A stretch of DNA of 64,000 nucleotides, from assembly GCF_000027125.1 (NCBI RefSeq), contig NC_017626.1. The stretch is one strand, 5' to 3'. Positions within the stretch are counted from its first letter, which is position 1, and the number at the start of each line of letters is the position of its first letter. Under the pieces are notes generated by a model. It did no database searches. It worked only from the letters and a program-made list of their open reading frames with translations, and was not told the origin of the DNA. The translations under genes and the position numbers were made by a program. Below, piece by piece: positions 57,345 to 59,455 of the stretch. Origin of the DNA: Escherichia coli 042. Lineage in GTDB: Bacteria > Pseudomonadota > Gammaproteobacteria > Enterobacterales > Enterobacteriaceae.

Positions 57345-57765
57345 AATTCGATCTCCAGCACATCAGCAAAACGCTATTCACGCAGTACAGCAAATCCTTC
57401 CAGACCCAACCAAACCAATCGTAGTAACCATTCAGGAACGCAACCGCAGCTTAGACCAGAATCGAAAGCTTTGGGCTTGCCTTGGTGACGTCTCTCGTCA
57501 GGTTGAATGGCATGGTCGCTGGCTGGATGCAGAAAGCTGGAAGTGCGTTTTTACAGCAGCATTAAAGCAGCAGGACGTTGTTCCTAACCTTGCCGGGAAT
57601 GGCTTTGTGGTAATAGGCCAGTCAACCAGCAGGATGCGTGTAAGCGAATTTGCGGAGCTATTAGAGCTTATACAGGCATTCGGTACAGAGCGTGGCGTTA
57701 AGTGGTCAGACGAAGCGCGACTGGCTCTGGAGTGGAAAGCGAGATGGGGAGACAGGGCTGCATGA
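57325..57765 (+). CDS. ninB: NinB (Orf family recombination mediator)
   Basis: 146-aa MKKLTFEIRSPAHQQNAIHAVQQILPDPTKPIVVTIQERNRSLDQNRKLWACL matches lambda NinB. Confidence 0.9.
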   Translation: MKKLTFEIRSPAHQQNAIHAVQQILPDPTKPIVVTIQERNRSLDQNRKLWACLGDVSRQVEWHGRWLDAESWKCVFTAALKQQDVVPNLAGNGFVVIGQSTSRMRVSEFAELLELIQAFGTERGVKWSDEARLALEWKARWGDRAA

Positions 57766-58607
57766 TAAATGTCGTTAGTTTCTCAGGTGGCAGGACGTCA
57801 GCATATTTACTCTGGCTAATGGAGCAAAAGCGACAGGCAGGTGAAGACGTGTATTACGTTTTCATGGATACAGGGGCAGAGCACCCTAAAACATATGAGT
57901 TCATCCGAAATATCGTCAGTAACTGGAAAATAGACTTACATTGCCTTCGTGTAATACCTAATCCAGAAATGGGGAAGGCCAGTAGTTATGAAGAGATAGG
58001 TGTCAATGATATTGGTCCAGATCTTATACCGTGGAAAAGGATGTTGAATAAATACGGACATCCATATATCGGCGGTGCGTTCTGTACCGACAGAATGAAG
58101 TCTGTTCCATTCACCAAATATTGTCAGGAAAAGTTTGGGAAAGGAAATTACATCACATGGCTTGGCATTCGCACAGATGAACCAAACAGGCTTAAAAGGG
58201 CTAATGGTTTTCGGTACCTGGCTGATATAAGCGATTTTGAAAAACAGGATGTGCTTGATTGGTGGAGTGAGCAGAAGTTTGATCTTGGCATACAGGAGCA
58301 TCTTGGTAATTGTGTTTTCTGCATAAAAAAAAGTATGCAAAAGGTGGCGCTGGTAGCCATGGATGAGCCAGAACTTGCAGATGCATTTATCAACATCCTT
58401 GATACAGAAATAAAAACAGGAAAGGAACCGGTTATGTATCGAGGTAATAATACACTTAAATCACTGATTGCCTTGTTTAGTGATATATCAAGAGATGAGT
58501 TAGCCTCAAGAATGACATCAATGCGACAGTATGATTCAGGTTCGTGTTCTGAATCATGTGAAGCATTTTCATGTCAGCTTGGATTTAATTTTGAGGATGC
58601 GGCATGA
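57762..58607 (+). CDS. ninC: NinC (PAPS-reductase-like protein)
   Basis: Internal start [20 protein letters not shown] (PP-loop SGGxxS motif) overlapping the ninB stop; start choice uncertain, the track ORF begins at 57702. Confidence 0.75.
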
Positions 58608-58786
58608 GACGACAGCGACGAAGTATCACCGACATCATCTGCGAAAACTGCAAATACCTTCCAACGAAACGCTCCAGAAATAAACGCAAGCCAATCCCCA
58701 AAGAATCTGACGTAAAAACCTTCAATTACACGGCTCACCTGTGGGATATCCGGTGGCTAAGACATCGTGCGAGGAAAACAAGGTGA
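58604..58786 (+). CDS. ninE: NinE
   Basis: 60-aa [60 protein letters not shown] matches lambda NinE. Confidence 0.8.
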
Positions 58787-58953
58787 TTGACCCAAATCGA
58801 AGTTACGAACAAGAAAGCGTCGAGCGGGCTTTAACGTGCGCTAACTGCGGTCAGAAGCTGCATGTGCTGGAAGTTCACGTGTGTGAGCACTGCTGCGCAG
58901 AACTGATGAGCGATCCGAATAGCTCAATGTACGAGGAAGAAGACGATGAATGA
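58783..58953 (+). CDS. ninF: NinF
   Basis: GTG-start [47 protein letters not shown] matches lambda NinF. Confidence 0.7.
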
Positions 58954-59455
58954 TGTTAAAGAAAAAGATATCCCCGGCTTTGAGGGTATATATAAAGTAA
59001 CTGAAAATGGAGACATCATTTCATGCCGTAAATCAAAAAAATTATCTCATGGCATTAAACCAGGAGGATATGCATTTGTCGGTCTGTATCCAGGTGGCGG
59101 GAAAAGACCATCATATAAAATGGTTCACAGAATTGTTGCAGAAGTATTTATTGATAACCCAGATGGCAAACCGGAAGTTAATCACAAGGATGGAAATAAA
59201 CTTAATAATAAAGTTGAAAATCTTGAGTGGGTAACGCGAACAGAAAATGCGAAACATGGATTTGATTCCGGGTTGCTTGTTCATGGTTTTAATCATCACT
59301 TCTGCAAACTAACGCCAGAACAAGTGAAATCAATATATAAATCAAAAGGCAAATACAGAGATATAGCCAAAGAATTTGGTGTTTGTGCGCAGACAGTGTG
59401 CAACATAAAAAACAAATCAGCGTACCGACGTTTTTTGGAGGGGATTGATGTTTAG
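58946..59455 (+). CDS. HNH homing endonuclease (NUMOD4-like N-terminus + HNH motif)
   Basis: 169-aa ORF with IPGFEGIYKVTENGDI N-terminal motif and HNH core VNHKDGNKLNNKVENLEW; inserted between ninF and the DUF1364-like gene. Confidence 0.75.
   Translation: MNDVKEKDIPGFEGIYKVTENGDIISCRKSKKLSHGIKPGGYAFVGLYPGGGKRPSYKMVHRIVAEVFIDNPDGKPEVNHKDGNKLNNKVENLEWVTRTENAKHGFDSGLLVHGFNHHFCKLTPEQVKSIYKSKGKYRDIAKEFGVCAQTVCNIKNKSAYRRFLEGIDV

Follow-up and report, generated by a model that had tools for sequence, protein, structure and literature searches.

An intact I-HmuI-like HNH endonuclease gene linked to a small nuclease gene in the nin region of a lambda-like prophage of Escherichia coli 042

The stretch of DNA analysed here, called the window throughout, comprises 64,000 nucleotides (nt) of Escherichia coli 042 (contig NC_017626.1, assembly GCF_000027125.1) and includes the nin region of a lambda-like prophage. 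Within this region an open reading frame (ORF) of 169 codons with an ATG start occupies positions 58946..59455 on the + strand and encodes a free-standing NUMOD4-HNH_3 endonuclease that resembles I-HmuI, as judged from the reading frame, the Pfam domains and a match to the I-HmuI structure (PDB 1U3E). By Pfam the genes of the region follow the order NinB, a PAPS-reductase-like gene, NinE, NinF, the HNH ORF, a gene for a protein of 91 amino acids, RusA, NinH and Q. The left neighbour is an allele of ninF that we call A-type (58783..58953, +; Pfam NinF PF05810, 47 bits). The right neighbour, the partner of the HNH gene, encodes a small His-Me-finger nuclease of 91 residues (59448..59723, +; phrog_131, E 6e-31; hhalign) and is referred to as the B-type gene, while A-type is used for the ybcO/DUF1364 gene that related phages such as HK620 carry. 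It is followed by rusA (59720..60082, +; Pfam RusA), which provides the right-hand homology common with the A-type phages.

The HNH gene is fitted directly between its neighbours. Its start lies inside the last codons of ninF with an 8-nt overlap (ATGAATGA, 58946-58953), and its stop overlaps the ATG of the B-type gene over a further 8 nt (ATGTTTAG, 59448-59455). A possible Shine-Dalgarno sequence, GAGGAAG, is located 5' of the HNH start codon at 58933-58939, and a Shine-Dalgarno-like GGAGGGG is found inside the 3' end of the HNH gene at 59437-59443, ahead of the B-type ATG. This arrangement suggests that the HNH gene is probably translationally coupled both to ninF upstream and to the B-type gene downstream. 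Because the HNH ORF overlaps both adjoining ORFs directly and a scan of the window at the Rfam gathering thresholds reveals no intron, the gene is free-standing and does not lie inside a self-splicing group I intron. A promoter and terminator scan of 58400-60200 yielded nothing beyond the shuffled expectation, so that there is no evidence for a transcription unit of its own; the gene is probably transcribed as part of the delayed-early message.

The protein is 100% identical to RefSeq WP_001000608.1, named 'NUMOD4 motif-containing HNH endonuclease', and matches phrog_59 of PHROGs ('HNH endonuclease', E 1e-50). An initial annotation made from the sequence had described it as a 169-residue product with a NUMOD4-like N-terminus and an HNH_3-type core, and both the ORF and the Pfam scores bear this out. 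NUMOD4, an N-terminal beta-sheet DNA-binding module, scores 29.2 bits against a cutoff of 23.4 over residues 7-48 (58964..59089, +), and the catalytic HNH_3 core scores 42.2 bits against a cutoff of 24.8 over residues 58-102 (59117..59251, +). In a sequence search of the PDB the sole significant match was I-HmuI (1U3E; E 9e-19, residues 6-121), whose residues 3-50 align with the NUMOD4 module. An AlphaFold2 (AF2) model computed with an alignment of 15 relatives has a mean predicted local distance difference test score (pLDDT) of 88, with beta strands within residues 6-59 and helices at 124-132, 137-144, 148-155 and 161-166. With this model Foldseek returns 1U3E at E 1e-9 with a template modelling (TM) score of 0.58 over 165 columns, while the next match has an E value of 0.13. 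The fold match over 165 columns therefore takes in the C-terminal helical domain, a helix-turn-helix (HTH) DNA-binding module that is placed at residues ~124-166 (59315..59443, +) by the AF2 helices, the Foldseek alignment and a weak Pfam match to the CENP-B_N HTH (residues 139-157). NCBIfam contains no match for the HNH protein or for either type of partner protein, and PADLOC finds only generic 'homing endonuclease' models for the locus and no defence-system context.

Mapping onto I-HmuI pairs H75 with H80, N83 with N88, N96 with N101 and D74 with N79, and places His80, Asn88, Asn92 and Asn101 in the catalytic core. The general base His80 and the metal-binding Asn101, which are aligned with I-HmuI His75 and Asn96, are invariant in the 15 relatives, as are N79, N87, N88, N92 and H104, down to 49% identity. 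The catalytic HNH residues, on which the initial reading of this ORF depended, are thus present and conserved on alignment. By its sequence and predicted fold, this ORF is genuine and intact, an HNH homing-endonuclease gene of the I-HmuI type carried by a lambda-like prophage, with cleavage and homing as its predicted activities.

The B-type gene had been termed DUF1364-like in the initial annotation, a label that holds at the level of remote homology but not by the Pfam thresholds. It stays below the cutoffs of both YbcO/DUF1364 (PF07102, 18.9 versus 29.9 bits) and DUF968 (19.7 versus 27.8 bits), whereas the A-type protein HkbD of HK620 is a clear Pfam YbcO/DUF1364 member (147 bits), to which the B-type protein shows only 27% identity. 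An hhalign comparison of the B-type profile with the A-type profile gives 95.8% probability (E 6.7e-9, 63 columns), and the two proteins have a conserved H...CxxCH..ID motif in common. These data indicate that the B-type gene is a remote homologue of YbcO/DUF1364. Both proteins are counted in group 7 within the His-Me finger superfamily (PMC5714182). RefSeq labels the B-type product a 'hypothetical protein', and a sequence search of the PDB with it returned nothing significant.

The linkage between the HNH gene and the B-type gene is strict. In all 33 E. coli copies of the HNH gene the B-type gene follows directly; conversely, 36 E. coli genomes contain the B-type allele, of which 32 have an intact HNH gene directly upstream, one has a deleted HNH gene and three have none. 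Likewise, in IMG/VR every locus with a B-type gene of at least 99% identity carries the HNH gene (21/21). The pairing extends to relatives at 60-81% identity; HNH relatives of 60-75% identity from E. coli, Salmonella, Klebsiella aerogenes and Citrobacter koseri are each directly followed by an overlapping gene for a 91-residue B-type protein. It is independent of the left neighbour, which can be ninF or a ninF-linked ORF, Roi, a 658-residue methylase or DUF1367, and of the right neighbour, which is either rusA or a DUF1133-type Q. In addition, the identities of the HNH gene and its partner to those of the window co-vary (71%/78% in contig L014, 65%/61% in L017, 63%/63% in L020). In the more distant relative L034 (54% identity) the neighbour is a YbcO gene, and relatives at 54-59% identity in L032 (1265-1558) and L037 (2580-2876) adjoin genes for Ref-like RecA-dependent nucleases (PF16786), L032 (59% identity) being the one exception to the B-type pairing among copies and close relatives. 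The HNH family thus seems to be linked more generally to genes for small His-Me-finger nucleases. From these comparisons we consider it reasonably probable that the HNH and B-type genes form a two-gene mobile module whose pairing is old and context-independent.

The initial annotation had treated the HNH gene as a lone insert. This does not hold, as HNH and B-type genes move together, and E. coli genomes, IMG/VR and metagenomes yielded no allele with both flanks intact from which only the HNH gene is missing. B-type genes without an HNH gene do exist. In three E. coli genomes (RM8082, DETEC-S565 and NCTC9104) another ninF allele overlaps a 93-residue form of the B-type protein; this B-type gene is 98.9% identical in nt sequence to that of the window, with the differences within roughly the first 20 nt. 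Among IMG/VR loci with a B-type gene of 77-81% identity, 18 of 20 lack the HNH gene and have the arrangement ninF(B)-B, which is also seen, without HNH, in Salmonella phage SEN22; the other two carry an HNH relative. Insert-less alleles, as the initial annotation expected them, are therefore available, but those found match one flank only, either the right one (ninF(B)-B, 98.9% nt identity) or the left one (Roi-A-type, like the E. coli QML220601 locus described below up to ~nt 33 of the A-type gene).

The base composition sets the HNH gene apart. Its ORF has a guanine plus cytosine (GC) content of 36.5%, and 27.6% at third codon positions (GC3), as compared to 47-51% GC and 52-56% GC3 for ninE, ninF, rusA and ninH, with the B-type gene in between (GC 43.8%, GC3 38%). 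The HNH ORF is thus compositionally foreign, and more strongly so than its partner. It is also rare: 33 of 5426 complete E. coli genomes contain the gene, every copy being chromosomal, and among the 421 phage records with a match to the ninE-rusA interval it is limited to two, Escherichia phages Dewey and Louie. The A-type ybcO gene is found in 957 of the same 5426 genomes, and the HNH gene is present at ~3% of ybcO-slot sites. E. coli E10 (NZ_CM143887.1) and ET729 (NZ_CP100927.1) each have two places that match the HNH gene and the B-type gene. These doubled copies exceed what is expected for an element found in 0.6% of genomes and may reflect spread between co-resident prophages.

In spite of this scattered distribution the gene is well preserved. 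Phages, genomes and IMG/VR together provide 13 distinct nt variants, of which 12 are intact and one is a deletion variant. The distinct changes comprise 16 synonymous and 5 nonsynonymous ones over 107 synonymous and 400 nonsynonymous sites (ratio ~0.08), and none (0) of them falls in the catalytic core. This pattern indicates that the HNH gene is under purifying selection and functional, by which we mean an activity predicted from sequence conservation. The deletion variant, found in E. coli AH19B041 (L010, 2321-2500), in an IMG/VR contig (L115, 1540-1719) and in a metagenome contig (L147), has lost 330 nt in frame and encodes a NUMOD4-only protein of 59 residues, in which residues 1-53 are joined to the last six. 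It retains the stop/start overlap and the Shine-Dalgarno sequence of the B-type gene, and thus looks like a degenerating HNH gene that is kept only for translational coupling. Given these natural in-frame deletions and the many B-type loci without an HNH gene, the HNH protein is probably dispensable. Degenerate copies and HNH-less B-type alleles fit the stages of the invasion, decay and loss cycle of homing-endonuclease genes, and the overall picture fits a gene that is, or recently was, active as a homing endonuclease.

To the left, the element occupies a variable slot. HK620, HK97, HK022 and their relatives have the order ninF, roi, hkbD/gp66, rusA, and in mEp235, mEp043 and 683R2 an ORF of 270 or 213 nt of unknown function takes the place of roi. 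All of these cassettes after ninF start at an identical ATGA(A/G)TGA overlap with the ninF stop, and the homology of the window with HK620, mEp235, mEp043 and 683R2 stops exactly at the overlap of ninF and the HNH gene; the left boundary is thus a module junction of the standard lambdoid kind. To the right, megablast homology with the HK620/HK97-type phages resumes only at rusA, not after the HNH gene, and the rusA product has 97-100% amino acid identity with that of HK620 and with those of all HNH-bearing loci. The initial annotation had compared the locus with the contiguous nin genes of lambda. While the position between ninF and the next gene was correctly recognized, lambda is the wrong comparator, since the slot is variable in HK97/HK620-type phages.

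Evidence on how the HNH gene reached its present positions comes from other left junctions, which retain 5' remnants of the A-type gene. Within the lineage that is 98-100% identical to the window a second context is found in E. coli QML220601 and in the IMG/VR contigs L028 and L120. Here an A-type gene begins after roi but breaks off after its first 29 nt (ATGGCTAATCTACGCAAAGAAGCACGCGG); ~14 nt of a ninF tail (AGGAAGACGATGG) come next, and then the HNH gene (98-99% identity to that of the window), the B-type gene and rusA. The QML220601-type sequence is matched by hundreds of ordinary roi-A-type prophages as far as ~nt 33 of the A-type gene, beyond which they differ from it. From this comparison it follows that most of an A-type gene gave way to a segment of ninF tail, HNH gene and B-type gene derived from a phage like that of the window, and that the left join lies within the A-type 5' end. 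In three diverged HNH lineages (L014/15/16, L031/L142 and L124) the HNH ORF opens, in frame, with the first 45 nt of the A-type gene. This remnant encodes MANLRKEARGREC(Q/R)V and always ends in ..(C/G)AGGT(A/G), and the nt differences between the 45-nt remnants are mostly synonymous. Relatives from Citrobacter and Salmonella have similar, more degenerate N-terminal extensions; a tblastn search against phages for the source allele of the Citrobacter remnant peptide gave nothing useful. The high-GC phage contig L034 (2842-3782) encodes a fusion of 215 residues, in which YbcO residues 1-50 precede NUMOD4-HNH_3, followed by a complete, divergent YbcO gene, so that its layout is target-gene fragment, endonuclease and replacement gene. 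The A-type 5' remnants are likely scars of invasion and mark the 5' end of the A-type gene as the candidate target. In this respect the analysis departs from the initial annotation, which had suggested the corresponding site in related phages as a possible target: the remnants point to the 5' end of A-type ybcO as the probable target, and not to an intergenic site between ninF and the DUF1364 gene. Five more metagenome HNH 5' ends, inspected for new left junctions, were all of the ninF class, one of them with the known deletion.

Three contigs (L026, L108 and L115) were considered as a third class of left junction, with 52 nt of ninF tail and as an independent transfer. This was rejected, as a second, unrelated HNH_3 gene lies within their ninF, and they are therefore not evidence for movement of the HNH-B pair. 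The second gene (L026 2404-2947, also in L108, L115 and L147) encodes 168 residues with an HNH_3 score of 70 bits and is part of a ~543-nt segment that splits ninF between HK620-equivalent positions 785 and 790. Phages of these four contigs thus contain two putative homing-endonuclease genes within 600 nt. Other HNH_3 or NUMOD4-HNH_3 genes are located directly after ninB (L015, 1996-2544; L011, which is SEN22, 957-1538), and nin regions look like hotspots for endonuclease genes.

Based on the junction scars and the strict HNH-B linkage we propose a cut-and-replace model. During co-infection, or upon induction of a polylysogen, the enzyme would nick or cut the A-type ybcO/DUF1364 gene of a related phage near its 5' end, roughly at nt 29-45 (..RGRECQV), with a candidate cut region around 5'-GCGCGGCAGAGAATGCCAGGT|ACGTATTTACGG-3'. 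The break would be repaired from the HNH-bearing genome, with rusA as the right-hand homology and with a short homology or an illegitimate join on the left side. The rest of the A-type gene would thereby be replaced by the HNH gene and the B-type gene, an allele that would lack the target sequence and supply the lost function. Cleavage activity, the identity of the target and endonuclease-driven transfer are what we infer from the sequence comparisons. On balance we regard as the probable explanation that the ORF is a free-standing I-HmuI-like homing-endonuclease gene in the lambdoid nin (delayed-early) operon, which invades A-type ybcO together with its B-type partner. The invariant HNH residues, the sporadic presence, the junction scars and the degenerate copies support the mobile, selfish nature that the initial annotation had proposed. 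A more specific version is that the HNH and B-type genes act as a 'cut-and-substitute' cassette, which would destroy the A-type ybcO of competitors at a conserved 5' site and install the endonuclease with a non-homologous functional replacement, while the endonuclease would take over the first 10-50 codons of the victim as its new N-terminus and site of translation start. We put this version forward tentatively, as one that is rather more doubtful than probable.

Several observations weigh against endonuclease-driven invasion. I-HmuI-type enzymes are nickases (PMC3017599), and the route from a nick to gene replacement is not established. The metal ligand Asp74 of I-HmuI corresponds to a family-invariant asparagine, Asn79, which could still bind metal. 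The HNH copy of the window itself carries no A-type remnant, and the common junction at nt 45 may go back to one ancient event instead of several rounds of homing. To the left of the HNH-less B-type alleles lies another allele of ninF, and in the 36 E. coli genomes with the B-type gene, in IMG/VR and in metagenome contigs we found no allele that matches on both flanks and lacks only the HNH gene, an empty site being defined by a ninF(A) tail at most 30 nt from the B-type 5' end. Moreover, the slot that follows ninF serves as a mosaic junction in general, and ordinary lambdoid recombination could yield the same arrangements. The HNH and B-type genes might accordingly be an ordinary, domesticated lambdoid mosaic cassette, which is shuffled by general illegitimate or homologous recombination and is not selfish; the HNH protein could, for example, work as a nickase alongside NinB/Orf, the YbcO-like nuclease and RusA and so feed into recombination-dependent replication. 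The slot does hold several unrelated cassettes with the same ATGA(A/G)TGA boundary, and the HNH gene sits among the recombination genes for NinB, the YbcO-like nuclease and RusA. The strong purifying selection (~0.08), the pairing with the B-type gene down to ~60% identity in four genera, which could mean a functional partnership, and the lack of an isogenic empty site in E. coli genomes, IMG/VR and metagenomes also speak for such a cassette. However, the HNH gene is rare (~3% of ybcO-slot sites) and foreign in composition even beside its partner, the copies with an in-frame deletion, which retain just the coupling to the B-type gene, argue for a dispensable protein, and B-type genes work without HNH in 18 IMG/VR loci and three E. 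coli prophages. The joining of A-type fragments to the HNH gene, seen in several lineages, is a prediction of break-induced invasion, and the closest characterised relative of the protein is a homing enzyme. We think this cassette reading unlikely, though it is the alternative to be taken most seriously.

The HNH protein could also serve as a weapon between phages, nicking the DNA of co-infecting or co-resident lambdoid phages that bear A-type ybcO and thereby lowering their replication, with gene conversion as a by-product; this idea partly overlaps with the homing model. A precedent is NixI, an I-HmuI-like nicking nuclease of the phage parasite PLE, which blocks the replication of its helper phage ICP1 (PMC9410903). 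With A-type ybcO in 957 of 5426 E. coli genomes, targets are often co-resident, and the position in the delayed-early operon leads one to expect expression at induction or infection. Yet PADLOC yields generic 'homing endonuclease' models only, and the junction scars indicate that DNA was transferred and not just destroyed. As a complete explanation we rate this as improbable, while a role in competition like that of NixI, by analogy, would be compatible with homing. That the ORF is an inactive, decaying remnant is suggested by the replacement of the I-HmuI metal ligand Asp74 by Asn79 and by the 330-nt internal deletion in some copies. Against this, Asn79, His80 and Asn101 are invariant throughout the family, all 12 distinct full-length variants are intact with a nonsynonymous/synonymous ratio of ~0.08, and the AF2 model is confident (pLDDT 88). 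Based on this ratio and on the invariant motif we reject the pseudogene reading, which has hardly any probability left. Invasion by a homing endonuclease together with its partner gene is the reading that we carry forward.

This reading can be compared with characterised systems. I-HmuI of Bacillus phage SPO1, a member of His-Me finger group 2 (PMC5714182), is similar in size (174 versus 169 residues) and has the same architecture of NUMOD4 beta-sheet, HNH/N core and C-terminal helical HTH, with conserved catalytic His and Asn residues. In contrast to the present gene, which is free-standing in a temperate lambdoid coliphage, I-HmuI is encoded by a group I intron, the two proteins have ~29% identity in the structural alignment, and Asp74 corresponds to Asn79. 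For free-standing genes, T4 mobE mobilises itself together with flanking DNA (PMC2790892), and the same applies to other endonuclease genes of T-even phages (PMC2988022). These HNH and GIY-YIG enzymes, such as mobE and SegG, share with the present gene a location between conserved genes, a sporadic presence, co-inherited flanking DNA and an endonuclease-linked allele that differs from the sensitive one. Here, however, the 'resistant allele' would be a diverged, paralogue-like gene (27% amino acid identity) that takes the place of the entire target gene, several lineages keep the target's 5' end as an in-frame fusion with the endonuclease, and mobility is deduced from sequences. More generally, homing-endonuclease genes mark recombination boundaries in phages (PMC10448857). 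Gene 31 of Salmonella phage epsilon34 is a fusion, in frame, of a host gene's N-terminus with an HNH homing endonuclease (PMC2629481), a type of scar that by its description matches the YbcO(1-15 or 1-50)-HNH fusions, although it lies in the early left operon and involves another resident gene. The B-type protein itself resembles YbcO/DUF1364/DUF968 (PDB 3G27) in being a small, nuclease-like prophage protein encoded directly upstream of rusA or Q, but differs in falling below both Pfam cutoffs.

Elsewhere in the window, a CpoB/ybgF thermometer, seven tRNA genes (five Lys-UUU and two Val-UAC) and three RtT repeats between 17587 and 19765 place it on the E. coli chromosome near tol-pal and the lysT operon, and the lambdoid element is therefore a prophage inserted downstream of that region. 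The PAPS-reductase/SspD/DndC-like gene of the nin region (57762-58607, +; PF01507, PADLOC SspD E 5e-14) has a low GC content of 40.7% and lies at the position that is taken by a Dam-type DNA methyltransferase in Dewey, Louie, mEp043 and others; it may represent a cassette for DNA modification or anti-restriction. Another HNH gene, of a different family and unrelated to the one at 58946..59455, follows the lysis genes (63489-63839, +; 116 residues, PF01844 HNH, E 2e-16). Its position is that of the HK97 gp74-type HNH protein, which assists terminase.

The presence of an HNH gene is no surprise in itself, as phages commonly carry free-standing HNH homing endonucleases and the RefSeq name already fits. 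What the comparison adds is a concrete candidate target at the 5' end of ybcO/DUF1364, a widespread gene, together with laboratory-tractable phages as natural donors (Dewey and Louie) and as classic recipients (HK97, HK022 and HK620). In addition, the locus illustrates how an endonuclease gene can travel together with a stand-in for the gene that it seems to overwrite. If the proposed homing is correct, the HNH protein would add to the I-HmuI-type nicking enzymes a new one whose site is defined, and part of the mosaicism of lambdoid nin regions would be driven by an endonuclease rather than being purely random. If, in addition, the two genes act as a cut-and-substitute cassette, this would represent a route into a useful gene without intron or intein and an active driver of nin mosaicism in E. 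coli prophages.

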